Positions 11,885 to 33,293 are shown, counted from the first letter of the stretch. The stretch is 64,000 nt of DNA from an uncultured Myxococcales bacterium (GCA_903850505.1 CAINLT010000173.1:7120-71119); one strand, 5' to 3'. Numbers and translations are program-made. The notes: generated from the sequence alone by a model not told the origin.

Positions 11885-12313
11885 ATGCCCCGCTTCTGGA
11901 TTTTGCCGTTGCCGCTCATGCTGTTTGTCGCCTGTGGTGCGCCGATGGCCGGCAACTGGCACGGTACATTTGACCGCGGTCCGATCGCCGCCCACCCGCT
12001 TTTGCTGCACATCCAGGACGACGGCCAAAAGGGCTGGCTGGAAGTGCGCGAGCCCGGCAAGGCGTTCGCCCGCTTCACGGTCTGCAGCGTGGACGTCGAT
12101 CCGAATCGCCGCGTGACGCTGACGTATGACGCCAACCGGCCGAATTGCGACGCGGGCACTCAGAACCCCGATCCATCTGAGCTGCGCACGCTCAAAGGCC
12201 ACGTCGGCGAAGCCGTTTTCTACGGCGACGTCCTGCGCGGCGTGGAGAACCTCGGTTTCTTCCGAATCTTTCGCGATGCTGAACACCTGCCAGAAGACGT
12301 GACCGGCAGTTAG
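11885..12313 (+). CDS. Hypothetical small lipoprotein
   Basis: It begins MPRFWILPLPLMLFVACG (lipobox). It shares a frame with track ORF 11210-12313, but the upstream part of that ORF is antisense to pfk. GC3 is high. Confidence 0.55.
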   Translation: MPRFWILPLPLMLFVACGAPMAGNWHGTFDRGPIAAHPLLLHIQDDGQKGWLEVREPGKAFARFTVCSVDVDPNRRVTLTYDANRPNCDAGTQNPDPSELRTLKGHVGEAVFYGDVLRGVENLGFFRIFRDAEHLPEDVTGS

Positions 12314-13599: not shown

Positions 13600-13678
13600 C
13601 CGCCGTGCGCACCCAACTTTGAGGCCCTCTGTGGACAGCGCCGCAACGACGGAAAATTTCACGGCTCCGGAAGCGACG

Positions 13679-14674
13679 ATGGACGACCTCGAAGCGCTGG
13701 AATTTGCCCGCTCGGCGCGCGAACGCGTGCTGGCGCAGATTGGCAAGCGCGTGGTCGGCCAGGATCAGGTGATTGACCTGCTGTTGACCGCGCTGTTCGC
13801 CAATGGCCACGCGCTGTCGATCGGCGTGCCGGGTCTCGCCAAGACGCTGCTCATCCAGACGCTGTCAGAGACGCTGCAGCTCAAGTTCGGCCGGATCCAG
13901 TTCACGCCCGATCTGATGCCGTCGGACGTGACGGGTACGGAAGTGCTGGAGGAAGAGCGCGCGACGGGGCACCGCGTCTATCGCTTCATTCCCGGGCCGG
14001 TTTTTGCCCAGATCCTGCTGGCGGACGAAATCAACCGCACGCCGCCCAAGACCCAAGCGGCGCTGCTCCAGGCGATGCAGGAGCGCAAGGTGACCGTCGG
14101 CGGCGTGCAGCACGGGCTGGATGAGCCGTTCCTGGTGCTGGCGACGCAGAATCCGATTGAACAGCACGGGACGTACCCGCTGCCGGAAGCGCAACTGGAC
14201 CGCTTCATGCTGGCGATCCACTTTGATTATCCGGCGTGGGAAGAAGAGCTGGAGATCGTGCGGCGGACCACAGGCGTCGAACAGCCGAAAGTGGAGGCCG
14301 TGCTCACCCGCGCGCAAGTGTTGCGCATCCAGGCGCTGGCGCGCGCGGTGCCGGTGGCCGAGCACGTGCTGCAATACGCGGTAAAGCTGGTGCGCGCGAC
14401 GCGGCCCGATGACGCGATGTGCCCGCCCGGACTCCGGCCGCTGCTGGCGTATGGCGCGAGTCCGCGGGCGTCGCAGTGCATCATTCTGGCGGCCAAGTCC
14501 CGCGCGGTGCTGATGGGCCGCGCCACGGTGAGCCTGGACGACGTGCGGTCGCTGGCGGTCGCGACCGTGGCGCACCGCGTCGTGCCGAGCTTCCGCGCTG
14601 AGGCCGAGGGCATGGACGGTCGCAAGCTTGTCGAGCGCCTGCTGGCGGAGATTCCCGCTTCCGTGACGGCCTAG
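13679..14674 (+). CDS. MoxR-family AAA+ ATPase
   Basis: Walker A region GVPGLAKT, Walker B LLADEINR, and VLATQNPIEQHGTYPLPEAQLDRF, typical of MoxR/AAA_3. ATG 13679 is preferred to the long track ORF start at 13400. Confidence 0.9.
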   Translation: MDDLEALEFARSARERVLAQIGKRVVGQDQVIDLLLTALFANGHALSIGVPGLAKTLLIQTLSETLQLKFGRIQFTPDLMPSDVTGTEVLEEERATGHRVYRFIPGPVFAQILLADEINRTPPKTQAALLQAMQERKVTVGGVQHGLDEPFLVLATQNPIEQHGTYPLPEAQLDRFMLAIHFDYPAWEEELEIVRRTTGVEQPKVEAVLTRAQVLRIQALARAVPVAEHVLQYAVKLVRATRPDDAMCPPGLRPLLAYGASPRASQCIILAAKSRAVLMGRATVSLDDVRSLAVATVAHRVVPSFRAEAEGMDGRKLVERLLAEIPASVTA

Positions 14675-14677
14675 GCC

Positions 14678-15856
14678 ATGGCGGATCGCGGTTTTGGCGG
14701 CCTGGGCGGCGGCCTTGGGCGGTGGCTGCAAGCGCGGCAACGGCCGCAGCAGTCTGCGCCGACCCAGCCGCAGAAGCCGCGCGATCGCGGTCGTTTGGAG
14801 CGCATGCCCGCGCCGCGCGGTCACGACGCGCTGCATGAAAAAGCCTGGAACGCCCAATTGAACTGGTTTGCTGACGACGCCGTTGAGCGTCAGACGCTTG
14901 CGCAACGCGCCACCGAAGTGCTCGCGGGCCTCGGGCCGCTGCAGTTGCCGGCGCGCCAGGTGGACGATGGCCAGCCGGGCGGTCTGCACCGGTCCTTGCG
15001 GCGCGGCGGCGGCGTGGAATTCAGCGACCACAAGGAATACGCGCCGGGCGACGATCTGCGCCATCTGGACTGGAAGGCGTGGGCGCGCACGGACCGCTAC
15101 TACATCAAGCGCTACGAGCAGGAAGTCCACGCGAGCCTGACGCTTGTGCTGGATGCATCGGCGTCCATGGCGTTTGCCGACGGCCAGAGCGACAAGTTCG
15201 ACGCCGTGCGGCTGCTGCTGGCGGTCCTCGCGCTGGTTCTCGTCCGGCAGGGCGACGCGGTCGCGCTCGTCGTGATTGGCAGGCCGGAGCTGAACGTCCC
15301 GACAGGTTCAGGCCTGCGGCAGTTCAGCCAGATCTGCGAGCGCCTTCAGGGCATTGTGCCGAGCGGTCAGGCGGGGCTGGACCATTTGGGGCCGGCGTCC
15401 TGGCGTGGCATGGATCGCCGCGGCGTGGCCGTGGTGGCGACGGATGCGCTCGTCGCGCCGGAGATGGCGGTGGAGCCGCTCTACGACCTGAAGCGCACCG
15501 GTCTGGATGTCCTGCTGCTCCACACGCTGCATCCACGCGAGCGCGACCTGGATTTTCACGGTCCAACGACGCTGGTGTGCCCGGAGACCGACGATCGCCG
15601 GCTGACCGATCCGCGGCTGACCCGGCCGGCCTTCCAACGGCTGATGGCGCAGCACTGCGATCGTCTGCGGACGCTGACGACCCACGGCGGCCTCGGCTAT
15701 TTGCAGGTCGACACCTCGATCGATCCGCGCGGCGTCATGCGCCAAGTCCTGCGGGCGACCGCGCGTTTGCGCAAGCGCGCCGATCCGGTGCTCGATGCCG
15801 GCGCTTATGGCGATGGCGGCGTTGACACGGATGTGCTGCTGGCCGACGAAGGCTGA
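14678..15856 (+). CDS. DUF58 domain protein (MoxR partner)
   Basis: It carries the signature DHKEYAPGDDLRHLDWKAWARTDRYYIKRYEQE and starts 3 nt after the MoxR stop. Confidence 0.85.
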   Translation: MADRGFGGLGGGLGRWLQARQRPQQSAPTQPQKPRDRGRLERMPAPRGHDALHEKAWNAQLNWFADDAVERQTLAQRATEVLAGLGPLQLPARQVDDGQPGGLHRSLRRGGGVEFSDHKEYAPGDDLRHLDWKAWARTDRYYIKRYEQEVHASLTLVLDASASMAFADGQSDKFDAVRLLLAVLALVLVRQGDAVALVVIGRPELNVPTGSGLRQFSQICERLQGIVPSGQAGLDHLGPASWRGMDRRGVAVVATDALVAPEMAVEPLYDLKRTGLDVLLLHTLHPRERDLDFHGPTTLVCPETDDRRLTDPRLTRPAFQRLMAQHCDRLRTLTTHGGLGYLQVDTSIDPRGVMRQVLRATARLRKRADPVLDAGAYGDGGVDTDVLLADEG

Positions 15857-15970
15857 CGCCGCGACCTCGTTCGCCAACAACTCCGCCCGCTTTCGCCCGG
15901 ACACTTGCCAAGCGGGCGTGTGTGACCTAAATCGATGCGCAGTCCCGCTTACCCTTATCAGGAGATCTCC

Positions 15971-16552
15971 ATGGCTATCACTCTCGCCCCGCTGCCCTAC
16001 GCCAAAGACGCGCTCGCCCCGTACCTGACTGCTGAAACGCTCGAGTACCACTACGGCAAGCACCACAACGCCTACGTCGTGAACCTCAACAAATTCATCG
16101 ACGACGGCAAGGCGGACGGCGCCAAGACGCTGGAGCAGATCATCTTGTCGTCCGACGGCCCGGTGTTCAACAACGCCGCGCAGGTGTGGAACCACACGTT
16201 CTTCTGGAACAGCATGAAGCCCGCTGGCGGCGGCAAGCCCACCGGCAAGATCGCCGCGCAGATCGCCGCCGATTTTGGCAGCTACGACGCGTTTCGCGCC
16301 GAGTTCATCGCGGCCGCCATGGGCCAGTTCGGCTCCGGCTGGGCGTGGCTCGTGCTCGACGGCGGCAAGCTGAAGATCACCAAGACGTCCAACGCCGACC
16401 TGCCGATGAAGGCCGGTCAGACCGCGATCATCACGATCGACGTGTGGGAGCACGCCTACTACATCGACTACCGCAACCTGCGGCAGAAGTGGGCGGAGAC
16501 GTTCCTGGACAGCTTGGTCAACTGGGAATTTGCCAACGCCAACTTGGGCTGA
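15971..16552 (+). CDS. sodB: Fe/Mn superoxide dismutase
   Basis: MAITLAPLPYAKDALAPYL, YHYGKHHNAYV and DVWEHAYYIDYRN. An AGGAGA RBS lies upstream of ATG 15971. Confidence 0.93.
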   Translation: MAITLAPLPYAKDALAPYLTAETLEYHYGKHHNAYVVNLNKFIDDGKADGAKTLEQIILSSDGPVFNNAAQVWNHTFFWNSMKPAGGGKPTGKIAAQIAADFGSYDAFRAEFIAAAMGQFGSGWAWLVLDGGKLKITKTSNADLPMKAGQTAIITIDVWEHAYYIDYRNLRQKWAETFLDSLVNWEFANANLG

Positions 16553-16564
16553 CAGCAAGCCGGG

Positions 16565-18733
16565 ATGATTGATTTCGGCAACCCGTGGATGCTGATCGGC
16601 CTGCTGGCAGCAGGCTTGCCGATCGCTTTGCATCTTTTTGGCCGCCGGCACGCGCCGACGATCCGGTTTGCGGCGTTGGCGTTTATTCTGGCGAGTCATC
16701 CGCGCGAGGCACGGGCGCTGCGCGTCAACGAGTGGCTGCTTGTGGCAGTGCGCGCGTTGGCGGTGGCGCTCGTCGCCATCGCGTTGTCCAGGCCGATGAT
16801 TGCGCTGCCCGGTGCCGCGGCGGAAGGCATCGATACGGGCGACCGCCCCGTGGCCGCCGTCATCGTGCTGGACGACAGCATGTCCACGCGGGCCCGCACA
16901 AGCGGTACTGAGACGGTGTTTGATCGCCTCCGCGCCCGCGCTTTGGTGACCGTGGAGCGTCTGCCTGCCGGCTCCAAGGTGGCGGTCGTCGCTTCCGGCT
17001 TTCCAGCGCGGCTCCTGACCCGCCAGCTGACCAGCGATCGCAGCGCCGTGCTGGACGCTATCCGCCTGCTGCCACACCGGCCGCGCAAAGACGACGCTGC
17101 GCGCGCGCTGGCGATGGCCGACAACGTGCTGCAAACCGCGGATTTGGACGATCGGCGCCTGCTTGTGCTGACGGATCTGCAAGCGAGCGGCTGGCAAGGC
17201 GTGGCGTTGCCATCCCAGACGCGCGCCGGTGTGCCCGTGCGGGTGCGCGTGGACCGCGTGGAGCCTGGATCGCGCGAGAACGCCGCAATTACCGACGCCG
17301 TCGTCGTGCCGCAGACTGATCGCGGACCGGATCAAGTGCGCCTGGACGTGACCGTGCAGCACTACGGCGAGCGGCCCTACCGCGGCTACCTGACCGTAAA
17401 AGTGGCGGAACGCGAGTGGCAGAGCCTCGTGGAGTTGCCCGTCGGCGGCACGGCGCAGCGCAGTTTTCAGGTGACGGCGTCGGCGCCCATGGCGGAGATT
17501 CGCCTGCCCGACGACGCGCTGGACGTCGACAACTACCGGCAAGTGCGGCTGGACGGCGCGGCGGGCGTGCGCGTGGCGATCATCAACGGCGCGCCGCGGC
17601 CCGTTCCGCGGGACGACGAGGCGTGGTTCCTGGCCCGCGCGCTGGAACTGAGCGCGGATCGGCCCGGTGCGCTCACGGTGGACACGCTGCAGCTGCCGAG
17701 CCTGTCCGTTGAAGCCTTGCGCGACTACGACGTGCTGGTGCTGGCCAACGTCGCCGAGCTGTCGGCGGAGCTCTCAGCAGGCATTGACGCGTCGGTGCAG
17801 GCAGGCAAAGGACTGCTGCTGACCGTTGGCGACAACCTGCCGGCGGATCCGGCGAGCTGGCTGCCCGGCCTGCTGCCCGTGCGCGTCTATGGCCAGCGTG
17901 CCGCGGAGTCGAGCGCCGGCCAGCGCCAAAGACCCACGACCGCGCTGCGCGTGGAGCCGAACAATCCGCACTCCGCGGTGACCGCATCGGTCCAGCGCCT
18001 GCGGACGGCGTTGGAGGCGTCGGTGGGTGAGACGCTCGGCGCCGTGACGGTGCGGCGGCACGCCCTGTTGGAGCCGTCGCTCACGCTGGCGGATCAGGCG
18101 GTGCTGCGCTACGCCGATGGCGCGCCCGCACTCGTCATGTCGGCCAGGGGGCGCGGGCAGGTCGCGCTCCTGACGACGACGATCGATCTGGATTGGGCCG
18201 ATCTGGCGCTGCAGCCCGGCTTCCTGCCGCTGGTCAGTGAAGTGGTGCGGAGCCTCGCGGGCGACCGCGGGCTGGAGCGGCGCGGCGCGGTGGAGGTCGG
18301 CGACGTGGCTGTTCTCGGTCGCGACGAGCGGGCGACCGACCTCGAGGTCAAGCTGGATTCCCGGCCGTTTGGCCCGGTCGCCCCGACGTTGTCCCTGCCC
18401 GCAGCGGCGCAGCGCGGCCATTCGTGGCAGGTGACGGGCCTGGATGAGCCGGGGCGCTACACGGCGACGGAACTCAAGAACGGCACGGCGCTGACGTCCC
18501 GGCTGCTTGTGACGGTGCCGCCCTTGCGCGAGAGTCGGCTGGTACCGGCCAAGACCGGCGCGCTGCTGATGGCGGACTCGGCCGATCGCAAGTCGACGCG
18601 CCACGTGGCCAAGTCGCCAGCGTGGTCGGGCGTGATCCTGATCCTGCTGGGGCTGCTGCTTTTTGAGGGCGTGCTGATTCTGCGCGGCGGAATGCTCGGG
18701 CGGCCCCCGAGGACTTTTGCGAATCCCGCATGA
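16565..18733 (+). CDS. BatA-domain / von Willebrand factor A-like membrane protein
   Basis: The N-terminal MIDFGNPWMLIGLLAAGLPIALHLFGRR matches the BatA aerotolerance N-terminal double-TM motif. There is a MIDAS-like DDSMS and a C-terminal TM (WSGVILILLGLLLFEGVLIL). Confidence 0.8.
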   Translation: MIDFGNPWMLIGLLAAGLPIALHLFGRRHAPTIRFAALAFILASHPREARALRVNEWLLVAVRALAVALVAIALSRPMIALPGAAAEGIDTGDRPVAAVIVLDDSMSTRARTSGTETVFDRLRARALVTVERLPAGSKVAVVASGFPARLLTRQLTSDRSAVLDAIRLLPHRPRKDDAARALAMADNVLQTADLDDRRLLVLTDLQASGWQGVALPSQTRAGVPVRVRVDRVEPGSRENAAITDAVVVPQTDRGPDQVRLDVTVQHYGERPYRGYLTVKVAEREWQSLVELPVGGTAQRSFQVTASAPMAEIRLPDDALDVDNYRQVRLDGAAGVRVAIINGAPRPVPRDDEAWFLARALELSADRPGALTVDTLQLPSLSVEALRDYDVLVLANVAELSAELSAGIDASVQAGKGLLLTVGDNLPADPASWLPGLLPVRVYGQRAAESSAGQRQRPTTALRVEPNNPHSAVTASVQRLRTALEASVGETLGAVTVRRHALLEPSLTLADQAVLRYADGAPALVMSARGRGQVALLTTTIDLDWADLALQPGFLPLVSEVVRSLAGDRGLERRGAVEVGDVAVLGRDERATDLEVKLDSRPFGPVAPTLSLPAAAQRGHSWQVTGLDEPGRYTATELKNGTALTSRLLVTVPPLRESRLVPAKTGALLMADSADRKSTRHVAKSPAWSGVILILLGLLLFEGVLILRGGMLGRPPRTFANPA

Positions 18734-20175: not shown

Positions 20176-20997
20176 ATGACGAAGCGATTGTTCCTGGCGC
20201 TGGCGCTGCTTGCGGCGTGCGGATCCAAGGCGGCGGCGGATGCGGCGACGGACGCTGCCGGCGATGTTGCCGCAGCGGAGGACGTCACGGCGGATGCCGG
20301 CGCCGACGTTGCGGTGCAACTCAGCCCCGCGGCGCAGATGTGCGCGGACATTGCGGCGCAGGTTTGCATCACGGCCATTGCCTGCTGTCAGGCCGGGACC
20401 AGCGCGGATTGCGTCGCCAACGAGACGGCGGCGTGCCTGAAGGTCGGCTTTGCCGGCATTGACGACGCCAGCGCGGCGGGCGTGGTCAAGCTGGATGCGA
20501 CGCGCGGCAAGGCGTGCCACGCCGCCCTGAATGCCGCGGCGACGGGTTGCGACTATCTGGGAATGCAGGCAGCGCGCCGGCAATGCCTGCTGGCGTGGCT
20601 GGACACCGCGTCCAAGGGCGACCAATGCACCGCAACGGCGCCCATCGCGTGTGACAGCTTCACTGGCCGCTGCGATCCCGTCACGATGGACAGCTACGCG
20701 TGCCGCAAGGCCGGCGCGGATGGGGACGGCTGCAACCTGGGGAAGCCGTGCAGCATCGACCTGGACTGCCTGAACACCAAGGTGACGCGCGCCACGGTCT
20801 GCGGCAAGCCCAACAGCACGTGCGAACTCTCCGACGCTTGCGCCCAGGGCTTCAAGTGCAGCTCCGGATTTGCCTGCGAGCCGTGGGACGGCGGCGGCAA
20901 GGCCGGGGTCACTTGCAAGGCCGATAACGAATGCGCCGTCGGTTTCGCCTGTGACGCCAGCTCGGCCAAGTGCACGGCCTCGTTCTGCGGCTTGTAG
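20176..20997 (+). CDS. Cysteine-rich lipoprotein
   Basis: Lipobox LALALLAACG, and many paired Cys in short repeats (C..G..C....DC, CSSGFACE, CAVGFACD). Confidence 0.65.
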   Translation: MTKRLFLALALLAACGSKAAADAATDAAGDVAAAEDVTADAGADVAVQLSPAAQMCADIAAQVCITAIACCQAGTSADCVANETAACLKVGFAGIDDASAAGVVKLDATRGKACHAALNAAATGCDYLGMQAARRQCLLAWLDTASKGDQCTATAPIACDSFTGRCDPVTMDSYACRKAGADGDGCNLGKPCSIDLDCLNTKVTRATVCGKPNSTCELSDACAQGFKCSSGFACEPWDGGGKAGVTCKADNECAVGFACDASSAKCTASFCGL

Positions 20998-22140
20998 CTA
21001 CGCGCCCGCAATCGCCCGCAGCGCCGCCAACGCAACGCCCGGCGCCGCACATTCTGCCGCCGTCAGCACGCCGCCCGTGAGGGCATTCTCGACGAGCCAC
21101 CAATCCGCGCCGATGACCGCGCGATCGGCGAGCTGTGTCCCCGCCAACTCCGCGCCCGAGCCGGTCTGCGCGGCCCGCGCGTACTGCACCGCCAGCATCA
21201 GCGCCTCCAGCGCGCGCGCCCGCGTCGGCAGCCACGCATCCTGAATGGGCGCCACCTGGTCCGGGTGCAGCACCCACTTGCCGGCGAAGCCCAGCACTTT
21301 GGCGTTCTCCGCGTCGCGCGCCGCCAGCGCCAGCGCCTCCGCGTGCGCCTGCACCTGTGCGTTGTGTTCGGGCGTTCCCGGCTCCGCCGTTGGCCGGATC
21401 GGCAGCATCGCCGTCACCGCGTCGACCGCGTCCTTGCCTTCGCTCGCGGCGATAACGGGCAGCAACTGTCGCACCGCCGCCAGATCCGTCGTCCACGACT
21501 GCGCGCGCACTTCGCCGCCGACCATCCGGGCAAAATCCCACGCGCCAAACGTCAGCGACGCCACGCTCGGGATCGCCGCGATCTGCTGGGCTTGGCCAAA
21601 CGCGCGCGGGCTCTCAATCAGCACCTCCAGCATCGGCCGATTGTCGTGGCCCGCGTGCCGCTGGATCTGCGCGACCAGCCGGGCGATCGCCGCGATCTCG
21701 CCAGCGTCCTCCGTTTTGGCGATGACGAGCGCGTGGAGCTTGTGGCCCGCCGCCGTCAGCACGTCGACCAAATCGTCCTCAAAATAGCGCGACCGCACGT
21801 CGTTGGGCCGGAACGCGACGATGCGCTGGGCAAAATCGAGCTGCTGCAACGCCTCCGCACAGAACCGTCGGGCATAAGCCTTGAACTCCGGATGGTCCGG
21901 CGCCGCGTCCTCCAGGTCGTAGAAAAAACAGTCCGCCGCCGTCTCCGTCGCTTTCTGCAGCAACTTCCATGACTGCGCCCGGCCATCGGTCGCGGGATCG
22001 CCGCCCGCGCGCATCTTGAACGCCGGAATCGCCATCACGCCCCGCCGGCGATACGGCACCAGCCGACCCCGGCGCTGCGGCGGCGCCAGCCGTTCCTGCA
22101 GGTCCTGAATTTCCTGATGAATGTCTTCACGCTGCAGCAT
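20998..22140 (-). CDS. HpcH/HpaI aldolase / citrate-lyase beta (CitE)-like family protein
   Basis: Motifs FFYDLEDAAP (CitE D-x-E-D), IAKTEDAGEI, LIESPRAF, FGAWDFA and KWVLHPDQV. ATG 22140 (MLQREDIHQE) was chosen. The longer track ORF runs to 22455 and overlaps the BMC-P gene. Confidence 0.75.
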   Translation of the reverse strand: MLQREDIHQEIQDLQERLAPPQRRGRLVPYRRRGVMAIPAFKMRAGGDPATDGRAQSWKLLQKATETAADCFFYDLEDAAPDHPEFKAYARRFCAEALQQLDFAQRIVAFRPNDVRSRYFEDDLVDVLTAAGHKLHALVIAKTEDAGEIAAIARLVAQIQRHAGHDNRPMLEVLIESPRAFGQAQQIAAIPSVASLTFGAWDFARMVGGEVRAQSWTTDLAAVRQLLPVIAASEGKDAVDAVTAMLPIRPTAEPGTPEHNAQVQAHAEALALAARDAENAKVLGFAGKWVLHPDQVAPIQDAWLPTRARALEALMLAVQYARAAQTGSGAELAGTQLADRAVIGADWWLVENALTGGVLTAAECAAPGVALAALRAIAGA

Positions 22141-22203
22141 CGTGTTCCTTTGGGGCGGCGGCAAGGTCTTGTCGACAGCCCGCGCGCGTGCGACAGTGTG
22201 CCT

Positions 22204-22533
22204 ATGCTGCTTGCGCGCGTCATCGGCAATGTCGTCGCTACCCGGAAAACGCCGGGGCTGGAGGGTATTCGCCTCCTGATGGTGCAGCCGATTGACGAGC
22301 ATGGTGCCGACCGCGGCAAGCCGCTCTGCGCGGCAGACACGACCCAAGCGGGTCCCGGCGATTGTGTGCACCTGACGACGTCGCGTGAAGCGGCGCTGGC
22401 GATGCCTGATCCGTTTGTGCCGGTCGACGCCGCGATCATCGGCATCGTTGATCAAATCGACGTGCCGGCGCGCGCCACGGTGGCTGCGCCCCGGACAGCA
22501 GCGCCCAAGACTACCGCACGGAGGGCAAAGTGA
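22204..22533 (+). CDS. Bacterial microcompartment vertex protein, EutN/CcmL family (BMC-P)
   Basis: [31 protein letters not shown]...[13 protein letters not shown] is the canonical EutN/CcmL pattern, followed by a basic A/P/T-rich tail of about 25 aa. Confidence 0.85.
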
Positions 22534-22802
22534 TCCTCGCGCGCGTCCTCGGCAGCGTCGTTTCGACCGTCAAGCATCCGAGCCTGCGCGGCCTGCCGCT
22601 TTTTGCCGTGCAGCCGATTGAGCCCGACGGCAGCGACTCCGGCGACAGCTTCCTCGCCGTCGATCACGCGCAATCTGGCCCGGGGGACACCGTCGTCATC
22701 CTCCGCGAAGGCAACGGCATCCGCCAATTGCTCGGCGACAGCAAAGCGCCCGTGCGCTGCCTGATCGTCGGCGTCGTCGACGCCGTCTCCACGATCGACT
22801 GA
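22530..22802 (+). CDS. Bacterial microcompartment vertex protein, EutN/CcmL family (BMC-P), second paralogue
   Basis: [31 protein letters not shown]...[10 protein letters not shown]. The GTG start overlaps the preceding stop (GTGA). A GGAGGG RBS lies upstream. Confidence 0.85.
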
Positions 22803-23503
22803 TGGCGACGACCCTGCACCGGCTGCATCTGGGTGAACCGACGCTGGCGCAGGCCCGTCGGCAACTTCTGGCGATCGCCCAGGAGCTTCACGCGCGTGGC
22901 TGGGTGGCCAATCACGACGGCAACGTCACGCTGCGGCTGCCCGGGGAGCACCTCCTGGCGACGCCGACGGCGCTGTCCAAGCGCGTGCTCATGGAGAGTG
23001 ACCTGATTGTGCTGGACGCTCGGGACCGCGTGCTGCAAGGCGGGCGCAAGGTGTTTTCCGAGCTGAAGCTGCACCGCGCGGTGTACGCGGCGCGGCCGGA
23101 TGTGCGCGCGGTTGTGCACACCCATGCGCCCAACGCGACGGCGCTGGCGGTGGCGGGCGTGGCGATCGAGCCGCGGATGTTGGCAGAAGCCGTGGTGTCG
23201 CTGGGCGCGGAGATTCCCCTGCTGCCGTATGCGTTTCCACAGAGCGCTGAGCAAATTGGCCAGCTGACGCAAGCGGCGCTGAAGTTTGACGCGCTGACGC
23301 TGGGCAATCACGGCGTGCTGGCGTGGGGCGACGATCTGGAGCAGGCGTATCTGCGCGCTGAGCTGTTGGAGCACCTCGCGGCGATCCAGCTGCGGGCGAT
23401 GCAGATTGGCCGCCTGACGACGCTGCCGGCGGTTGATTTGGCGCGGCTGTTGGAGGCCCGCAAGAAGGCCGGCCTCGGTCCGGAAGCGCGGCAAAAAGGA
23501 TAA
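22802..23503 (+). CDS. Class II aldolase/adducin family protein
   Basis: ELHARGWVANHDGNVTLRL, HTHAPNATALA and LGNHGVLAWGDDLEQAY. The ATG overlaps the BMC-P2 stop (TGATG). Confidence 0.85.
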   Translation: MATTLHRLHLGEPTLAQARRQLLAIAQELHARGWVANHDGNVTLRLPGEHLLATPTALSKRVLMESDLIVLDARDRVLQGGRKVFSELKLHRAVYAARPDVRAVVHTHAPNATALAVAGVAIEPRMLAEAVVSLGAEIPLLPYAFPQSAEQIGQLTQAALKFDALTLGNHGVLAWGDDLEQAYLRAELLEHLAAIQLRAMQIGRLTTLPAVDLARLLEARKKAGLGPEARQKG

Positions 23504-23506
23504 TTC

Positions 23507-25144
23507 ATGCGACATCTCTGGCTGTTCCTTCTCGTGCTCCCGCTGGCGTGCGGTGCACCGCAAGTGCCGGCCGCGACGTCGACCGCGCCGGCCGTACGGC
23601 GCTGCCTGTTGCTGACGACCAATGACAGCGAGTCCAACTTTGACGGTGCCGTGCGCGGGGCGGACGGCAAGCTGACCTACACGTACCCGCTGGCCCGCAT
23701 CGCTGCGGCCAAGAAGGCAGCGCTGTTGGCGAACCCGGGCGGCGTGCTGCTGCTGGAAGGCGGGGACATGCTGCAGGGCAGGTTCCTGGAGCGGCAGGAC
23801 GGCGATCGCGCGCGGGCAGCGGCGGACAACTGGCCGGTCTATGAGGCGGCGGGCTACGATTTTGGCGCGCTGGGCAATCACGAGTTCGACAACGGCCCCA
23901 AGGTTGTGCGGCGCGCGCTGCTGGGGCTGCACCAGTTCCGCATGCTGGCGGCAAACGTCGATGGCGTTGGAACGGCGCTTGAGCCAGCGGACGCGGGCCA
24001 CGCCAACGGGCTGTTTGGCGCGATGGCGGTCGCCGATTGCGGCGGCATCAAGATCGGCCTGTTTGGCCTGCTGACGCCGAGCACGCGGACGATTTCCGAT
24101 CTCGGCGACGTCAAGCTCAAGCCGTTGGAGGAGAGCGCCAAGGCGGCGATCGCCGGGCTGCGGCAGCAGGGCGCGGAGACCATCGTGCTGCTCTCCCACC
24201 TCGGCGTGGACGAGGACAAACAGCTGGCGGCGGACGTGCCTGGCATCGACGTGATCGTTGGCGGCCATTCCCACACCAAGCTGGAACACGCGATCCGCGT
24301 GGGTCCGACGTGGATCACCCAGACCGGCGCGCGTTTTGAGCGGCTGGGACGGATCGACTTGGCAGTCGACCCTGCGGGTCATCTGGCCGACGCGACGACC
24401 TACGCGCTGGAAAAGCCTGAGCAGCACGCGCCGGACGCGGCTATCGTCGCCCAGACGGACAAGCTGCTGGCCGAACTGGTGCCGGAGAAGGTCATCGGCA
24501 AGCGCGATTTTGCCTGGGACGTGATGGACATCGCGCATTCGCAGTACGCCGTTCGCGCCACGCGGGCGGTGGCGCAGTACGCCGAACGCATCAGCAAGCA
24601 CCACGTTGACGGCGGCTTGTTGAATACCGGCGGTTTCCGCAGCCACACGATCTATCCGCCCGGACCGGTCACGAACCTGGAAGTCTCGGCGATTCACCCG
24701 TTCCGCAACCGCGTGGTGCTGGTGACGTTGACCGGTGAGCACCTGCGCGACGTGCTGGAGCACGCCTGCGGTCACGCGCAGAACCAGGAACATGGCGCCA
24801 ACAGCATCGTCTGGGGCGTGCAGATGCGGTGCGACGTGGCGCGGACGGCGGCGCGCTACAAATACGTCGACAACAAGCCGGTGGCGATTGAGCTGCGCGG
24901 CGAACGCGCCCAGGACATCACGGTCGGCGGGATGCCGCTGGTGCCGGGCAAGAAATACACGATCGCGACGCTGGACTACCTCGCGCGCGGCGGCAGCAGC
25001 TACCTGCCGCTGCAGTTCGGCGAGCGCCAGTGCCTGGACGGCAAGCCGTTCAAGGCCGATGACAAGGCGGCGTGCGGCGAAACCGCGCTGCTGTCCGACG
25101 TGATTCTGGAAGCGGTGACAGCAGGCGAGCTGGACAAGAACTGA
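23507..25144 (+). CDS. Bifunctional metallophosphatase/5'-nucleotidase-family lipoprotein
   Basis: Lipobox LLVLPLACG. Metallophosphoesterase motifs GGDMLQG, GNHEFDNG and GGHSH. The C-terminal 5'-nucleotidase-like domain contains TLDYLARGG. Confidence 0.85.
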   Translation: MRHLWLFLLVLPLACGAPQVPAATSTAPAVRRCLLLTTNDSESNFDGAVRGADGKLTYTYPLARIAAAKKAALLANPGGVLLLEGGDMLQGRFLERQDGDRARAAADNWPVYEAAGYDFGALGNHEFDNGPKVVRRALLGLHQFRMLAANVDGVGTALEPADAGHANGLFGAMAVADCGGIKIGLFGLLTPSTRTISDLGDVKLKPLEESAKAAIAGLRQQGAETIVLLSHLGVDEDKQLAADVPGIDVIVGGHSHTKLEHAIRVGPTWITQTGARFERLGRIDLAVDPAGHLADATTYALEKPEQHAPDAAIVAQTDKLLAELVPEKVIGKRDFAWDVMDIAHSQYAVRATRAVAQYAERISKHHVDGGLLNTGGFRSHTIYPPGPVTNLEVSAIHPFRNRVVLVTLTGEHLRDVLEHACGHAQNQEHGANSIVWGVQMRCDVARTAARYKYVDNKPVAIELRGERAQDITVGGMPLVPGKKYTIATLDYLARGGSSYLPLQFGERQCLDGKPFKADDKAACGETALLSDVILEAVTAGELDKN

Positions 25145-25147
25145 GGA

Positions 25148-26287
25148 CTAGCCCTGCCGGTCAGAAATCATCCGCTTGGCGGTGCGCGCGACGGTCTGAT
25201 TGACGTCCCGGCTGCCGGACGCATCCTTCAAATCCTTGGGCGAGAGCTGCCGCAGGAACGTCATCGAAAATGCCAACGGCGTCTTGGGGTTGAATACCAG
25301 CGCCTTGCGCGTGGCGTAGTCCTTGACCCAGTTGCGGTTGCGGCAGATCGTCGTCAACAGCTCCTCAGACAGCGTCTTGTTCGCGGCGAAGTTGGTGATC
25401 TCGCCCTCCGTCACGCGCGGCGAGCGCAGCACCGCGAGCGCCACGAGCTTCTTGGGATCGAGGATCAGCAGCTTGCGCACGTTGGCGTCGCCGACCATCG
25501 CGAGCCGCACTTTCTGCGACACCGACATCTTGGTGATGAGCGACTGCAGCGTGGAGGTCTTGTCGTCGTCGGTCTTGGCTTCCTCCGGCGTCGGCGCCTG
25601 CGTTGTCGATCCGTGTTCGCGCTCGTAACTCTGCGTTGCCCACGCCATCGCGAGCGCGAACTCACTGTCATTCAAGCCCTTCTCGTGGGGCGCGTCGGCG
25701 TCCTCGCCAGACAGGATCGCCTTCATCTCGCGAAAGCCCGAGATGTGCTCCAGCGGCAGGTTCTGGCGCACGCCGAGCTCAAGCAGATTTTGCACCACGC
25801 CCTGTGCGGCGCGCGGATTGAGCCACAGCGCCTCGATGATCGCCGGCGAGCGCAGCGCGCGCACCTGGTTGCGGCCAATCGCTTCACAGACTTCCGCTGA
25901 CGCCGTGCCCGCCAGCCAGCGAACGGTGTCGTCGGCGATCGTGTTGTGCATCGCCAGCTCGCGTGCGACCTGATCATGCTTGCGGAAGACGCGCGCGGCG
26001 GCATCGAGCGCCGCTGCCGACCGGAGCTGCGTCAGCACCGGGTGCACGAGGTCCGGCGGCATTTCCTGCAGCGCGATGGCGGCTTTCTTGCGCACCAACT
26101 CGTCCTCGTCCTGACTCAGGAAGAGCAGCACGGGCACCAGCTGATCGGGCGAGAGCGGCAGCGCGCCACCTGCAGCGCGGAGTCGGGTCGCGACGGGTGA
26201 CGTCGCGGCGAGGAACGGCTGCATGCGCTCGGGCAGCTCGTCGATCGCCATGGCCGTGCCACTGATGTAGGGCTTGAGTTCAGACAT
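25148..26287 (-). CDS. Hypothetical protein with HEAT/ARM-like helical repeats
   Basis: High-GC3 ORF starting 12 nt downstream of the deoA stop. It has helical repeat character (LVRKKAAIALQEMPPDLV..., VLRSPRVTEGEI...). No family recognised. Confidence 0.55.
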   Translation of the reverse strand: MSELKPYISGTAMAIDELPERMQPFLAATSPVATRLRAAGGALPLSPDQLVPVLLFLSQDEDELVRKKAAIALQEMPPDLVHPVLTQLRSAAALDAAARVFRKHDQVARELAMHNTIADDTVRWLAGTASAEVCEAIGRNQVRALRSPAIIEALWLNPRAAQGVVQNLLELGVRQNLPLEHISGFREMKAILSGEDADAPHEKGLNDSEFALAMAWATQSYEREHGSTTQAPTPEEAKTDDDKTSTLQSLITKMSVSQKVRLAMVGDANVRKLLILDPKKLVALAVLRSPRVTEGEITNFAANKTLSEELLTTICRNRNWVKDYATRKALVFNPKTPLAFSMTFLRQLSPKDLKDASGSRDVNQTVARTAKRMISDRQG

Positions 26288-26299
26288 GCGTGCACCCTC

Positions 26300-27616
<1,317 letters not shown>

Positions 27617-27664
27617 AGGACACCTCCGCGCCGAGTGTGACACATCTGTGCCAGCGCGCGAAGT

Positions 27665-28950: not shown

Positions 28951-30513
28951 TCACAGTGGGGCGCGTTCCTGCAGGAAGTGCTCAAGCTGGCGGTTCGTCG
29001 TCCAACGGCGGAACATTTCCATGTCCTTCTCGTCGGCGTTCTCCAGCTTGTACATCAGGTAGTCGAAGATCGACTTGTGCTTCTTGCACCACACGGAATC
29101 CCGCATGTGGCCGTGCAGCGAGCCTTGGGTCTTGTAGTTGTACTCGACCTGCTGGCCGCACCACGGCTTGTACACGCAGCTCACGCAATCCGGCTGCGCG
29201 TCGTTCAAGCCCGCCATCACAATCGCGCGGGTCTGCGCGTTGGTCATCAGCTGGTGGTATGTGTCGTCGACCGTGCCAATCTTGAACATCTCATCGCCCA
29301 TCGCGGCGACGAAGCGACCTTCATCGCTCGAGTAGACGTTGCCGTCCGGCGCGTAGCCCAGCTGGCCGATGCATGCGCCACCCGGCGTCCGCAGGTCCAG
29401 GTAGTTGGGCTCCTGATCCGCGAGGATCTTGTTCAACATGATCGACGCGTGCCGCTCCATCACCTGCGTGCCGTTGCGGTTCAGCTCGATGATGTAGTCC
29501 ACGGCGTGGGCGTAGAACTCGAGGAAGTCGTCCATCGAGTAGCCCAGCGTCTTGGCCGTGCGCTCCGCAAACCCGAACGGGTCGAGCTTGCGCAGGAACA
29601 CCGCCTTGCAGCCGGCTTCCACGTACGTGTCGACGATTTCTTTCCACCGATGCAGGCTCGGCTTGGTGATCGTTGGCAGCGCTTCCACGCGGTACAGGTT
29701 GGTGTCGAGGCCAAGCTCGCCGTAGCGCGCGTTGATCCGCTTCATCCAGTACATCAGGGTTTCCTGACTGTTGCCGTCCTTGAAGATGCGGATCTTGTTG
29801 TGCAAATCCGCCGGACCGTCGAGGCTCGTGCAGATCTGCACTTTGCGATCGAGCAGGTACTCCATCTTCTCGTCGTCCATCAGCGACAGATTCGTCACCA
29901 GGGCGAACGACAGCGCCTTGTTGGCCAAGGCGTTCTTCTGCCGCGCGTACTCGACGATGTGCTGCAGCACTTCCCAGTTCGCGGTGGGCTCGCCGCCCTG
30001 GAACTCGATGGTGATGCCCGGGCTCGTCGTCTGGAACACGAGGTCGACCGCGCGCTCCGCCGTCTCGATCGACATGTCCGTGTCTTTGCGGTCCATGCCG
30101 ACGATCGAGCTGTGGCAGTACTGGCAACCGTGGTTGCAGCGATGCGTCAGCACAAACGCGTGCAGCGTCGGGCCGTAGAACAGGTATTGCTTCTTGCGTT
30201 TCCAGCGCTCCGCCTGCTCCGCGACGTTGATTTCCTTGGCGATGAAATTGCGCGCCTTGAGCTTCTCGTACAGCGGCTCACCCGGCAGGGGCTTGCCCTC
30301 GATGAAGTCGCGGAACTCGTCCTGCGTCAGCAGGTCCCAATCGCCCATGTCATTGGAAATCAGGATCTTCTTGCCGAGCTGCCGCTGGTTGAACGGCACC
30401 GCAAACTCAGGTTTCCAGCGGCCCGGGCTGGAAATCTTCGTCAAATCAACCTGTTTGCCTTTGGGCAGCAGATCGTGCTTCTGGCTTTTGGTCTGAAGCG
30501 TGGTCGCTGTCAT
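28951..30513 (-). CDS. Radical SAM/SPASM-domain maturase, HxsB-like
   Basis: CNHGCQYC (CxxxCxxC) at residues 126-133, preceded by an N-terminal domain of about 120 aa. The C-terminal SPASM-type region contains GGACIGQLGY...DCVSCVYKPWCGQQ. An AGGAG RBS lies upstream of ATG 30513. Confidence 0.85.
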   Translation of the reverse strand: MTATTLQTKSQKHDLLPKGKQVDLTKISSPGRWKPEFAVPFNQRQLGKKILISNDMGDWDLLTQDEFRDFIEGKPLPGEPLYEKLKARNFIAKEINVAEQAERWKRKKQYLFYGPTLHAFVLTHRCNHGCQYCHSSIVGMDRKDTDMSIETAERAVDLVFQTTSPGITIEFQGGEPTANWEVLQHIVEYARQKNALANKALSFALVTNLSLMDDEKMEYLLDRKVQICTSLDGPADLHNKIRIFKDGNSQETLMYWMKRINARYGELGLDTNLYRVEALPTITKPSLHRWKEIVDTYVEAGCKAVFLRKLDPFGFAERTAKTLGYSMDDFLEFYAHAVDYIIELNRNGTQVMERHASIMLNKILADQEPNYLDLRTPGGACIGQLGYAPDGNVYSSDEGRFVAAMGDEMFKIGTVDDTYHQLMTNAQTRAIVMAGLNDAQPDCVSCVYKPWCGQQVEYNYKTQGSLHGHMRDSVWCKKHKSIFDYLMYKLENADEKDMEMFRRWTTNRQLEHFLQERAPL

Positions 30514-30543
30514 ACGTGTTGGCTCCTGTAGCTGCTTGCGCGC

Positions 30544-30783
30544 CTAGGCTTTCTTGGTTTTCTTGCGACCGGCCGTGTTGGCCAGCGCGAAGTTGCAGAA
30601 CTCGGCCACCACGTCGCCATCGACGTCCGGATCGATGTCCTTGATGTCCACGGCGTAGTAGTCGCCATCGCGCTTGATGGTGAACGCGGCAAAATCGGCA
30701 AACGTGGTCGCCGCATCCTTCACCGCCTGCTGCATGTACAGCGTGCGGTGCAACTTGACCGACTGGTGTGTGACATGGCTCAT
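30544..30783 (-). CDS. HxsD-like small protein (79 aa), tentative
   Basis: ATG 30783 has an AGGAG RBS 9 nt upstream. It aligns by eye with the neighbouring 148-aa protein (LY....V..AA..F.D.A, EF.N..LA) and has a Lys-rich C-terminus, GRKKTKKA. Confidence 0.55.
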   Translation of the reverse strand: MSHVTHQSVKLHRTLYMQQAVKDAATTFADFAAFTIKRDGDYYAVDIKDIDPDVDGDVVAEFCNFALANTAGRKKTKKA

Positions 30784-30842
30784 GCGAAGAACTCCTGAAA
30801 AAAGTCCGAACCGTTTGAAAACGCGGGCATTTGTTGGACGGG

Positions 30843-31289
30843 TCAGGCGTCTTTCTTCTTCTTGAACTTGTCTTCCCACGGCACGGCGATCCCCAGCGGA
30901 TCGTCGAGGAAGTCCATCCCGTCGTCGCCCGCCGCGAGGAAGTCGGTCGGCAGCGTGCCGCCAGCCGCGCCCGCAATCGCCTGGCTCGTGATGTCTTCGA
31001 TGATCTTCTGGTTGGCCTTCACGACCTTGCGACGCAGCGCCTGAGCGAGCAGCTCGTTCTCGAACTCACCGGACATCGCCGTCAGCTGCGCTTCGGTCAG
31101 CTCGCCTTTGCCGCGGAGATGCACTTCATAGCGCGGTCCGGCGCGGTCAAGCAGCACGTACGCGCGGTCGAGAAAGACGTACGCGGCGGCATACAGCACG
31201 TCAGCCGGGTACAAGCCGATGTCGAGCGACAGCGTCATCGTGTGGGTTTTCGGGTCGAGTTTTTCAATCTGAGGGTGGCCCATGCTCAT
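30843..31289 (-). CDS. HxsD-like protein (148 aa), tentative
   Basis: The core LYPADVLYAAAYVFLDRAYVLL....YEVHL and the segment EFENELLAQALRRK recall the HxsD family motif LLNDYxLRE (TIGR03976). It ends in an acidic then Lys-rich tail, DDGMDFLDDPLGIAVPWEDKFKKKKDA. Confidence 0.6.
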   Translation of the reverse strand: MSMGHPQIEKLDPKTHTMTLSLDIGLYPADVLYAAAYVFLDRAYVLLDRAGPRYEVHLRGKGELTEAQLTAMSGEFENELLAQALRRKVVKANQKIIEDITSQAIAGAAGGTLPTDFLAAGDDGMDFLDDPLGIAVPWEDKFKKKKDA

Positions 31290-31376
31290 GTACTCCAGTA
31301 GTGCAAAATGCCCCGGATGCGGGAGGGCGATCGCTGATTCGGCGGGGGTCGGCCGAAAATGCGCGCGCCCCAGCTT

Positions 31377-32645
31377 CTACTCTTGTCCGGATCGAACTTC
31401 AAGGCGCGTCGCCGGCACCCGTCCGCTCGCGATCGGCTCTGGGGGCACGACGAGTCCCGTATCCACATCGTCCTCATCATCCGACGGATGCCAGCCTGCC
31501 GCGTCGGGCGTCCAGTCGCGCGCCGTGTGATCGGTCTTGCGCTTGGGGTCCATCGCCATTTCTGTCAGCCGTTCGCCGGTCGGCGCCTGCACCTTGCCCG
31601 GGCGGGACACTTCACCGCCCGCGACGCTCTGCTGCGTCCCCGATTTGCCCTGATGCGCCGCCGGGATTGCCGCCAGGTTCTTGAACTTGGCCATCCGCCA
31701 CGCCGGATCCGACTGCAAATCCTGGACGATGCGCGAGATGATCGGCTTGGGATCCTGGAAGATCGGTGACAGCTCCGCGGGATCGTAGGCGTTGCCGCGG
31801 TCAAACAGCCCGCCGCAAATGGACCGCAGGCTGCATGAATTGCACACGTCCGCGTACAGGTGGCCCCATTCGGTCTGGCGGACCGTGCCCTTGTTGTCCA
31901 GGAAGTGGACGATGCGCTCCTCGCTCTTGACGATCTTGCGCGTCTCGGTCGAGCAGTGGGCGAATTCCGTCATGTAGCACAGCGGCACGCGCTCGACGCG
32001 GAACGACCGCCCCGTCTCCGCCAGCATCCGCATCGCCTTCGACAAACTGACTTCGATGTCCTGGAGGCGCGCGGCAAAGTACTGGTTGCTCGTCGCGCGA
32101 CCGATCGACGGATCCAGGTTGTTCCACACGAAGTGCTGGATGAACGGGAAGTTCTTGATGAACCACTCAATGTTGCCGTGCAAGTGGTCGCAATTGTAGC
32201 GGGTAATGACCGTGTTGATGTTGACGGTGATGTTGGTCTTGCCCAGGTTGGTCAGCGCCTTCTCCGCCCAATCCAGCGAGCCGGGCGTGCCGGTCAGGAA
32301 ATCTTCCAGCTTGTGCTTGTGGCTGTGGATCGACACGTGGACGTGCTGCAGCCCGGCGTCGGCCAGCGACTTGCAGTAGTCCCAATCGGCGAGCTTCTGG
32401 CCGTTCGTGATCATGCGCACATGCAGGCCGTTGGCGCGCGCGTGGGCGATGGCTTCCGGCAGGATCGGCGAAAGCGTCGGCTCGCCGCCGGTCATGATGA
32501 CGCCAAAGTAGTCGCGGCTGACAAAGTCGTCGACGATCTGGTGGATCTGCTCCAGGTTGTGGAAGAACGGCGTCTCAGGATTGGAGCAAAAGCCGCAATT
32601 CTGGTTGCAGTGCCGGACCATCTGGATGTAGCCGATGTTGGCCAT
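31377..32645 (-). CDS. Radical SAM protein (in HxsC-like position; long low-complexity C-terminal tail)
   Basis: MANIGYIQMVRHCNQNCGFC (CxxxCxxC at residues 13-20), IMTGGEPT, VSIHSHKHKLEDFLTGTPGS and a C-terminal Cys motif DVCNSCSLRSICGG. ATG 32645 is preferred to 32735. Confidence 0.85.
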   Translation of the reverse strand: MANIGYIQMVRHCNQNCGFCSNPETPFFHNLEQIHQIVDDFVSRDYFGVIMTGGEPTLSPILPEAIAHARANGLHVRMITNGQKLADWDYCKSLADAGLQHVHVSIHSHKHKLEDFLTGTPGSLDWAEKALTNLGKTNITVNINTVITRYNCDHLHGNIEWFIKNFPFIQHFVWNNLDPSIGRATSNQYFAARLQDIEVSLSKAMRMLAETGRSFRVERVPLCYMTEFAHCSTETRKIVKSEERIVHFLDNKGTVRQTEWGHLYADVCNSCSLRSICGGLFDRGNAYDPAELSPIFQDPKPIISRIVQDLQSDPAWRMAKFKNLAAIPAAHQGKSGTQQSVAGGEVSRPGKVQAPTGERLTEMAMDPKRKTDHTARDWTPDAAGWHPSDDEDDVDTGLVVPPEPIASGRVPATRLEVRSGQE

Positions 32646-32837
32646 TGAACGACTCCGTGGGCGCAGGTTCGGGGGAACGGGCGCGAACAGGCAGTGTGCC
32701 GGATTTTTTGGCCGACTGCACGCTTCGTCCGCCAACCCGCTGTTTTGCCGCTGATGTTGAGCGGCGGCTGGCGGTCTTGACCGCGGCTCGCCCGGAGGCG
32801 CAGACTTTTTCCAGCCTCACTTGGCAGGAGATGGCCC

Positions 32838-33290
32838 ATGTTTCCCACGCGCCCGAGTCCCCACCGCCGACCTGAACACGCCCGTAAGCCGCACCTGCTG
32901 GCGTGGCTGTGCGTGTTCGCCTCGGCCAGCGCGCTGACGTCGTGCCGCAATGAGCCGACCATCTCGCAGCCCAACGCGGTTGCGCCCGCCGCGGCAGCCA
33001 AACGCCCGCCGCAACCGGCACCGCAACTCATGGACCAAACGCTCACGCGCGCGCACCTGCGACCGATGCGGGACTGCTTTCACGGCCTGGGCTACCCGAC
33101 GGAGCGGCCGATGAGCCTCGGCATTTCGATTGAGACCAAGGGCGACGCGCTGGCGACGACCGTGTTCGCGATGACCGATGTGCAGGTGCCCGAAGGCGTG
33201 GCGAAGTGCCTCAAACAACGCGTTCCGGCGCAAGGGTGGCCGCCGGGCGTGTATTTTGCCGATTGGCCCAACGATGACAGCTGGCCGTAG
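32838..33290 (+). CDS. Hypothetical lipoprotein with TonB/AgmX-like C-terminal domain (tentative)
   Basis: Lipobox FASASALTSC and an AGGAG RBS. The C-terminal pattern R.MRDCF......P..L.I.IE..G......F...DV..P.GV..CL is like small periplasmic TonB-C/AgmX-type domains. Confidence 0.6.
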   Translation: MFPTRPSPHRRPEHARKPHLLAWLCVFASASALTSCRNEPTISQPNAVAPAAAAKRPPQPAPQLMDQTLTRAHLRPMRDCFHGLGYPTERPMSLGISIETKGDALATTVFAMTDVQVPEGVAKCLKQRVPAQGWPPGVYFADWPNDDSWP

Positions 33291-33293
33291 CGG

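Follow-up and report, generated by a model that had tools for sequence, protein, structure and literature searches.

A probable satellite operon of a Haliangium ochraceum-type metabolosome in an uncultured freshwater member of the Myxococcota

What purpose would be served by two putative vertex proteins of a bacterial microcompartment (BMC) that are encoded next to an aldolase, at a place where the genes for the facets of the shell are missing? This question is raised by positions 20998-25144 of a 64,000-nt stretch of DNA from an uncultured Myxococcales bacterium (GCA_903850505.1, CAINLT010000173.1:7120-71119; the window, hereafter, means this whole stretch), in which two genes of the pentameric shell protein family (BMC-P) overlap each other and the start of a class II aldolase gene. 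In the published catalogue of BMC loci, the H. ochraceum-type BMC was named HO, on the basis of about 40 loci that all bear a BMC-P triplet, and a satellite of two BMC-P genes and an aldolase was described for the type I HO BMCs (Sutter et al. 2021, Nat Commun, PMC8217296). The function of HO was called enigmatic there, and a role in nucleic-acid catabolism like that of the SPU type was suggested (PMC8217296). Our results suggest, with a probability of roughly 0.8, that the locus belongs to an HO-type metabolosome of the type I layout, as its satellite operon, in an uncultured freshwater member of the Myxococcota.

The BMC-P1 gene (22204-22533, plus strand, 109 aa) and the BMC-P2 gene (22530-22802, plus strand, 90 aa, GTG start) encode paralogous proteins, both of which span positions 1-83 of the 83 positions of the PF03319 profile and score 92.7 and 82.5 bits, respectively, against a cut-off of 25. 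The original prediction of two EutN/CcmL-family genes at these coordinates was therefore corroborated. Both proteins are similar in sequence to solved pentamers (5V74, 2QW7 and 4N8X), the PDB matches of BMC-P1 including the H. ochraceum BMC-P (5V74) and CcmL, and by these similarities BMC-P1 and BMC-P2 would cap the vertices of a shell as pentamers. The name 'shell-less' that had been given to the locus was misleading, because vertex proteins are encoded in it and only the facet proteins are missing. The C-terminal tail of BMC-P1 (22462-22533), which has about 23 residues and is basic and rich in Ala, Pro and Thr, overlaps the ribosome-binding site of BMC-P2, the GGAGGG Shine-Dalgarno sequence of which sits within the 3'-end of the BMC-P1 gene; this tail is unconserved, and the orthologs of BMC-P1 vary in length from 89 to 111 aa.

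The relationship of the pair to the BMC-P triplets was analysed in 80 BMC-H loci, which were those found among the matches listed in a search of a genome collection with the H. ochraceum BMC-H; this scope applies to all the statements on BMC-H loci below. The order common to these loci, which come from many phyla, was BMC-H, a BMC-P nearest to Hoch_5814, about 2.3 kb of other sequence, a BMC-P1-like BMC-P and then a BMC-P that was mostly BMC-P2-like. BMC-P1 was nearest to the second BMC-P of the triplet loci (about 39-63% identity) and BMC-P2 was nearest to the third one in most of them (39-54% identity), the third BMC-P of some triplet loci being closer to the Hoch_5814 type or to BMC-P1 than to BMC-P2. 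Most of the main loci from Myxococcota had the Hoch_5814-type BMC-P alone. Because of this order of the nearest matches in complete BMC-H loci, the pair in the window can be equated, at the level of sequence, with members 2 and 3 of the triplet in their usual order.

The two BMC-P genes overlap by 4 nt (GTGA, 22530-22533), and BMC-P2 overlaps by 1 nt (TGATG, 22800-22804) the gene of a FucA-like class II (metal-dependent) aldolase of 233 aa (22802-23503, plus strand, PF00596 155 bits). Both overlaps had been noticed before and had been taken to imply co-translation; they were confirmed in the sequence, and they proved to be common elsewhere. BMC-P1, BMC-P2 and the aldolase were found in the same order in 15 GTDB species-level genomes (L001-L015), with aldolase identities of 57-98%, and further on a metagenome contig of 442 kb (L333) and on two contigs of more distant Myxococcota (L350 and L351), which makes 18 loci in all. 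The 4-nt overlap between the BMC-P genes was kept in 16 of the 18 loci and an overlap of 1 or 4 nt between BMC-P2 and the aldolase in 12 of them, and therefore translational coupling belongs to the module as such and is not a chance property of the window. Pairwise dN/dS ratios (nonsynonymous to synonymous substitution rates) against six relatives were 0.05-0.10 for BMC-P1, 0.13-0.25 for BMC-P2 and 0.03-0.15 for the aldolase, similar to those of the housekeeping neighbours; the three genes are under purifying selection.

The nearest public genome was the metagenome-assembled genome (MAG) 'uncultured Myxococcales bacterium A14_bin-1730' (CAIMLR01), with 94-99% amino acid identity over the genes compared, and the next-nearest genomes were other lake and pond MAGs labelled Myxococcales or Myxococcota, which places the host in the Myxococcota. 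Lake metagenomes contained the window at 100% identity and a depth of 2-5x. An exact 50-mer from the window had no match among the contigs of the genome collection, and an identical aldolase was absent from the protein records. The comparison with H. ochraceum that had been drawn previously holds for the type of system; the organism itself is an uncultured freshwater member of the Myxococcota and not H. ochraceum. The records of four Myxococcota-like contigs (L006, L008, L012 and L056) bear the titles 'Enterobacteriaceae' or 'Klebsiella pneumoniae' and are evidently mislabelled.

The facet proteins were looked for in the window and around the satellite loci. Searches of the 64 kb by tblastn with PduA and with the H. 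ochraceum BMC-H (a query identical to PDB 5DJB) gave no BMC-H or BMC-T gene, and hidden Markov models (HMMs) built from 87 BMC-H and 5 BMC-T sequences found only noise in 990 six-frame segments of the same DNA (best E values of 0.6 and 0.047), as had been stated beforehand for the window. A BMC-P HMM run on the six frames of the 64 kb matched the two known genes alone. No BMC-H or BMC-T gene was found within 10 kb of any of the 18 satellite loci. The type I core, as obtained from gene calls and Pfam matches, consists of BMC-T, BMC-H, BMC-P, an aldehyde dehydrogenase (AldDh) whose N-terminus bears an amphipathic helix, and BMC-T.

The satellite of the sister species (L001, 96-98% amino acid identity) was complete in five pond sequencing runs, in which its depth was taken from the contigs matching at 100%, while main-locus sequences were sought by comparing the runs with L056:9300-12850 at an identity of at least 80%. 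The depth of the satellite contigs was 13.1-13.9 in run X8, 12.7-13.5 in X9, 9.1-10.7 in X10, 5.4-8.3 in X6 and 5.6-6.0 in X5, and that of the main-locus-like contigs was 12.9, 12.1, 9.69, 7.37 and 5.71 (two values in X6), and 5.69 and 5.35 (two values in X5), respectively. Collinear pieces of BMC-T, BMC-H, BMC-P and AldDh lay on a single contig of 31,988 nt in X8 and of 48,914 nt in X9, and parts of the same variant were found on shorter contigs in X10, X6 and X5. A second BMC-H-bearing organism showed another depth profile (10.6 in X9, 10.6 in X6, 10.4 in X12 and 7.8 in X11), and therefore the depth test discriminates between organisms. The same variant letters of AldDh also occurred, at 2-5x, on short contigs in the lake runs of the window itself. 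Because the contig with BMC-T, BMC-H, BMC-P and AldDh and the satellite share their depth in five runs, a main locus with facet genes and AldDh is probably present elsewhere in the same genome, on evidence that is circumstantial. When the lake runs were compared with L059, only short and mixed BMC-H contigs were obtained. The AldDh of the lineage was also sought among 120 profile matches; three of these (P0143, P0139 and P0222) represented type I HO main loci, but they came from other samples.

The placement as an HO-type satellite with its facet genes elsewhere, which the original prediction had anticipated, thus agrees directly with the module in the published catalogue and indirectly with the depths in the sister species, and the locus can be entered in that catalogue as a type I HO satellite (PMC8217296). 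In the scheme that we propose, the aldolase would be the signature enzyme, splitting a ketose-1-phosphate into dihydroxyacetone phosphate and an aldehyde, with a deoxy- or pentulose-1-phosphate or L-fuculose-1-phosphate as candidate substrates. The aldehyde would then be converted to an acyl-CoA by an AldDh bearing an encapsulation peptide, which would be encoded together with BMC-T, BMC-H, BMC-P and BMC-T in the main locus elsewhere in the genome, and BMC-P1 and BMC-P2 would cap the vertices of the main-locus shell. We infer this chemistry from the known biology of the PVM, GRM5 and ACI BMCs, the signature enzymes of which are class II aldolases (PMC8217296).

The aldolase of the window aligned with E. 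coli FucA over residues 19-225, including the C-terminal helix, and the glutamate and the three histidines of its metal site (E87, H106, H108 and H170) were invariant in 30 homologs and aligned with the ligands of FucA. The AlphaFold2 (AF2) model, with a predicted local distance difference test (pLDDT) score of 93, showed residues 1-10 as disordered and non-helical and the remainder as a standard FucA-like fold. As an alternative to the proposed scheme, the protein could belong to the aldolase family without being an aldolase, acting as a methylthioribulose-1-phosphate dehydratase, a 3-oxo-tetronate-4-phosphate decarboxylase or a ribulose-5-phosphate epimerase, in which case the chemistry of the BMC would be another one. 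The best NCBIfam and PDB matches are scattered over AraD-like, OtnC, MtnB and FucA proteins with similar low scores, and the position of Tyr113 of FucA is aligned without a tyrosine; however, the full-length alignment to FucA with its C-terminal helix, the four conserved metal ligands and the fact that homologous class II aldolases serve the PVM, GRM5 and ACI BMCs as signature enzymes make this alternative unlikely.

The termini of the aldolase were inspected for an encapsulation peptide, by which we mean a terminal amphipathic helix on a poorly conserved linker. Two groups of homologs have one. The aldolases of ACI-type and SPU-like main loci bear 45-80 extra C-terminal residues with an amphipathic helix at the end (for example ...LTYRELTALIEDAVRNLK), and the aldolases of sister Myxococcota satellites (P0328, P0331, P0338, P0342, P0349 and P0355), which are 53-57% identical to that of the window, have a linker and a C-terminal amphipathic helix (for example ...AALSELIREEIARALREGRS). 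The C-terminus of the window-clade enzyme is ...KAGLGPEARQKG, with no C-terminal extension. The window clade thus has an aldolase that lacks the C-terminal encapsulation peptide found in its sister clades, which is a new observation, and this enzyme may be brought to the shell by other means or could be active outside it. The loci with the peptide-less aldolase are the same loci that carry the nucleotidase gene described below. All the peptide-less aldolases (22802-22850 in the window; L001-L015, P0300 and P0316) are extended at the N-terminus by about 12 conserved residues, (S)VHxLHGxExxL, with an HxxHxG-like motif; this extension is not found on the peptide-bearing sister aldolases and is predicted by AF2 to be disordered.

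A fourth co-directional gene of the operon begins 3 nt past the stop codon of the aldolase gene and encodes an UshA/5'-nucleotidase-like metallophosphoesterase of 545 aa (23507-25144, plus strand, PF02872 82 bits, and PF00149), which is predicted to be exported and has an N-terminal signal or lipoprotein-like peptide. The limits 20998-25144 given for the locus by the original prediction were right, but this gene, which lies within them, had gone unmentioned. Its matches to UshA-, NadN- and CpdB-like NCBIfam models were all below the cut-off. In the ten GTDB loci with enough sequence on that side, as in L333, the gene follows the aldolase, the gap being +3 nt in the window clade, and it is absent from the satellites L350 and L351, the aldolases of which bear the encapsulation peptide. 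This distribution suggests that the operon of the window clade has gained an exported 5'-nucleotidase-like gene, which is also new.

On its other side, the nucleotidase gene faces a convergent gene of a HEAT-repeat-like protein (25148-26287, minus strand, 379 aa, weak HEAT matches), an arrangement found in eight loci (L001-L005, L012, L013 and L015). Located 5' of the HEAT-like gene is a thymidine/pyrimidine-nucleoside phosphorylase gene (26300-27643, minus strand, NF004490 572 bits against a cut-off of 269), a neighbour that occurs only in the closest clade (L001-L005). The exported nucleotidase would fit the published idea that HO and SPU-like BMCs process the sugar moieties of nucleic-acid debris, and we may speculate that it feeds nucleoside-derived sugars into the BMC route, in the closest clade together with the neighbouring thymidine phosphorylase. 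Three BMC-H loci (L067, L098 and L107) likewise have a homolog of the thymidine phosphorylase no more than 10 kb away, an echo of the theme of nucleoside catabolism near the operon of the window; in L067, from a Lentisphaerae MAG, the gene (10802-12085) comes directly after a BMC-P pair, and L098 and L107 are Chloroflexota MAGs.

Several observations weigh against the interpretation of the locus as a satellite of a metabolosome whose signature enzyme is the aldolase. No equivalog-level match was obtained for the aldolase, none of its NCBIfam scores exceeding 98.5 bits where the cut-offs are 137-400, and the FucA, MtnB, AraD, OtnC and Ru1P aldolase models were all far below their NCBIfam cut-offs. 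Neither the sequence nor the AF2 model showed a recognisable encapsulation peptide at either terminus of the window-clade enzyme. The nucleotidase, being predicted as exported, is excluded as cargo of the lumen, and it is synteny that connects it with the pathway. No contig physically joining the satellite to a main locus was obtained, and the depth match concerns the sister species and not the assembly of the window. In the BMC-H scans of the genome collection, the second of which used a degenerate DNA pattern for DVAAVKAAT[ED]AG, none of the 15 satellite-bearing assemblies was among the matches listed, a result that is uninformative.

Upstream of the operon lies the divergent gene of an HpcH/CitE-like C-C lyase of 380 aa (20998-22140, minus strand, PF03328 66.6 bits). 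The start codon of this gene is the ATG at 22140, given that the 35 residues upstream of the next methionine are conserved as protein; the internal methionine at 22035 is a leucine in two orthologs. With this start, a divergent intergenic spacer of 63 nt, which presumably holds a promoter or operator region, extends from 22141 to 22203, and the divergence across 63 nt that had been proposed from the window was confirmed. In an alignment of six orthologous spacers, the block GGTCTTGTCG...GCGCGCGTGCGACAGTGTGCC was nearly invariant; it contains two CGACAG repeats (GTCGACAG ... GCGACAGTG) and ends 7 nt 5' of the ATG of BMC-P1. No Shine-Dalgarno sequence was found ahead of this ATG, and a scan of 20800-26400 for consensus sigma-70 promoters and for terminators yielded neither a sigma-70-like promoter nor a meaningful terminator. 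None of the RNA sequencing runs contained the locus. The block might be read as TTGTCG-17-GACAGT and may represent an operator, with a leaderless mRNA for BMC-P1.

The best PDB matches of the CitE-like protein were malyl-CoA lyases (4L9Y and 5UGR), and its NCBIfam equivalog scores, at 47-67 bits, did not reach the cut-offs of 375-500. When 5.8 billion proteins were searched, a coherent family of 380-415 aa emerged. Three homologs with 49-55% identity, one from a marine bacterium, one from a Myxococcales MAG and one from a MAG of Ignavibacteria, are each followed by genes of an acyl-CoA dehydrogenase, a mesaconyl-CoA hydratase and a B12-dependent mutase, with MeaB next after the mutase in two of the three clusters. 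By their gene content these clusters are ethylmalonyl-CoA-pathway operons; this context was seen for the homologs with 49-55% identity and not in the window. The nearest structural and sequence relative of the CitE-like protein is Mcl1, the L-malyl-CoA/beta-methylmalyl-CoA lyase (4L9Y, 5UGR), from which it differs in that the window-clade gene is outside an ethylmalonyl-CoA operon, that the protein scores below the equivalog cut-offs and that it does not have an insertion of about 30 aa that is present in most relatives.

Could this lyase be a second cargo, or a co-regulated partner of the organelle, for instance by condensing an acyl-CoA with glyoxylate and so recycling CoA without a phosphotransacylase? 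The short divergent spacer with its conserved block would be compatible with such a role, as would the fact that no phosphotransacylase gene is found inside the core of HO main loci (BMC-T, BMC-H, BMC-P, AldDh and BMC-T) and that the divergent block of five genes (the CitE-like gene on one side; the two BMC-P genes, the aldolase and the nucleotidase on the other) persists in L333, where the CitE-like protein is 73% identical and both flanks are different. Nevertheless, the CitE-like gene adjoins BMC-P genes only in L001-L005 and L333; it was found neither in the other satellites (L006-L015, L350 and L351) nor within 10 kb of any of the 80 BMC-H loci. Orthologs (53-55% identity) in the genomes that carry L007-L009 lie on separate contigs with no BMC gene within 10 kb (L252 and L254; within a smaller distance on the short contig L253), and the 5' neighbours in satellites without an adjoining CitE-like gene are SelA-like, TonB-like, tetratricopeptide-repeat, ABC-transporter or acyltransferase-like genes. 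The N-terminal extension of the protein (MLQREDIHQEIQDLQERL and a basic linker) was considered as an encapsulation peptide and ruled out; the N-terminal helix is unlike such peptides, and the region is conserved throughout the family, including its members outside BMC loci and in ethylmalonyl-CoA operons. A role in the organelle is thus distinctly unlikely, and the gene is, judging from its family and its distribution, most likely a malyl-CoA-lyase-family gene that is merely adjacent and does not encode organelle cargo. The suggestion that two different C-C lyases give a hint of the cargo holds, in consequence, for the aldolase, where it is already catalogued and adds little, but not for the CitE-like protein, which has no BMC-specific peptide and belongs to a non-BMC family context.

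It is very improbable that the module is an orphan whose facet proteins were lost, so that the BMC-P proteins and the peptide-less aldolase would function with no closed shell around them, for instance in a complex of BMC-P and aldolase: the lack of facet genes in the window and near the 18 satellites, the lack of satellite-bearing assemblies among the BMC-H matches listed and the missing peptide would all fit such an origin, but the contig with BMC-T, BMC-H, BMC-P and AldDh matches the depth of the sister species across five runs, type I HO genomes normally hold their facet genes far from the satellite, and the known vertex role is the simplest explanation for the strong purifying selection on both BMC-P genes.

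Other features of the window were recorded around the satellite. Between a DUF2505 gene and the CitE-like gene there is an open reading frame (ORF) of a Cys-rich lipoprotein-like protein (20176-20997, plus strand, 273 aa) with no Pfam match, which is 64-86% conserved and missing in L002 and L005. Further upstream (13631-18733, plus strand), a row of genes for a MoxR-like AAA ATPase, a DUF58 protein, an Fe/Mn superoxide dismutase and BatA/VWA proteins, kept in L001-L005, resembles an aerotolerance (Bat) operon. Three radical-SAM genes with small ORFs in between are located at 28951-35246 (minus strand); the annotation of a small neighbour of these genes as HxsD (PF27806) in L335, a near-identical locus, suggests peptide maturation of the His-Xaa-Ser type next to the thymidine phosphorylase. 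A giant ORF of 4577 aa (41371-55104, plus strand) has 28 matches to the Cu-binding_MopE motif (PF11617, 676 bits). Finally, an error-prone polymerase cassette at 55485-60776 (minus strand) combines the genes of a DnaE2-like Pol III alpha subunit of 1055 aa and of an ImuB-like protein of the Y family (PF00817) with a small ORF upstream, at the place of ImuA.

The shell of H. ochraceum is the main structural and engineering model of BMCs. The present locus adds a well-conserved freshwater clade to the HO system and offers two small clues, namely the operon link to an exported 5'-nucleotidase-like gene, which is consistent with the published nucleic-acid-debris hypothesis, and a natural pair of aldolases with and without the encapsulation peptide. 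The CitE-like gene is removed as a false lead with regard to cargo, and the known picture of BMC loci is left unchanged. We give little credence to a more novel reading, in which the two BMC-P paralogs of the pair would have a function beyond that of vertex caps, such as the docking of the peptide-less aldolase at the shell, within an HO-type organelle for the catabolism of nucleoside-derived sugar phosphates; if true, this would bear on why BMC-P triplets exist and on what the HO BMC does.

Among known systems, the ACI, PVM and PVM-like, GRM5 and SPU5 loci resemble the window in having a FucA-like pfam00596 aldolase beside shell genes. In the ACI and SPU-like loci (L100 and L117-L128) the aldolase stands beside a BMC-P triplet; unlike the window enzyme, to which they are 34-42% identical, these aldolases are encoded in the main locus with BMC-H and bear a clear C-terminal encapsulation peptide. 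The aldolase of the window also differs from those of the sister Myxococcota satellites, having a short disordered N-terminal extension in place of the C-terminal linker and helix. With the H. ochraceum satellite the comparison was made by description: the H. ochraceum aldolase was not among the best 120 aldolase homologs, a literature search for Hoch locus tags gave no match, and neither PF03328 nor Hoch_4425/4426 is mentioned in the text of the supplementary trees of Sutter et al. 2021 (PMC8217296). The published type I HO satellite differs from the window in the fourth gene, that of the exported 5'-nucleotidase-like protein. The arrangement of two BMC-P genes and an aldolase is already catalogued, and the absence of the peptide and the gain of the nucleotidase are modest variant features. 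The window agrees with the type I HO satellite in several respects: it has the same three genes in the same order and with overlapping frames, away from BMC-H and BMC-T genes and in a Myxococcota host, its BMC-P pair corresponds in sequence to the paired members of the triplet, and a main locus of BMC-T, BMC-H, BMC-P, AldDh and BMC-T is found in its relatives and is probably present in its own lineage.

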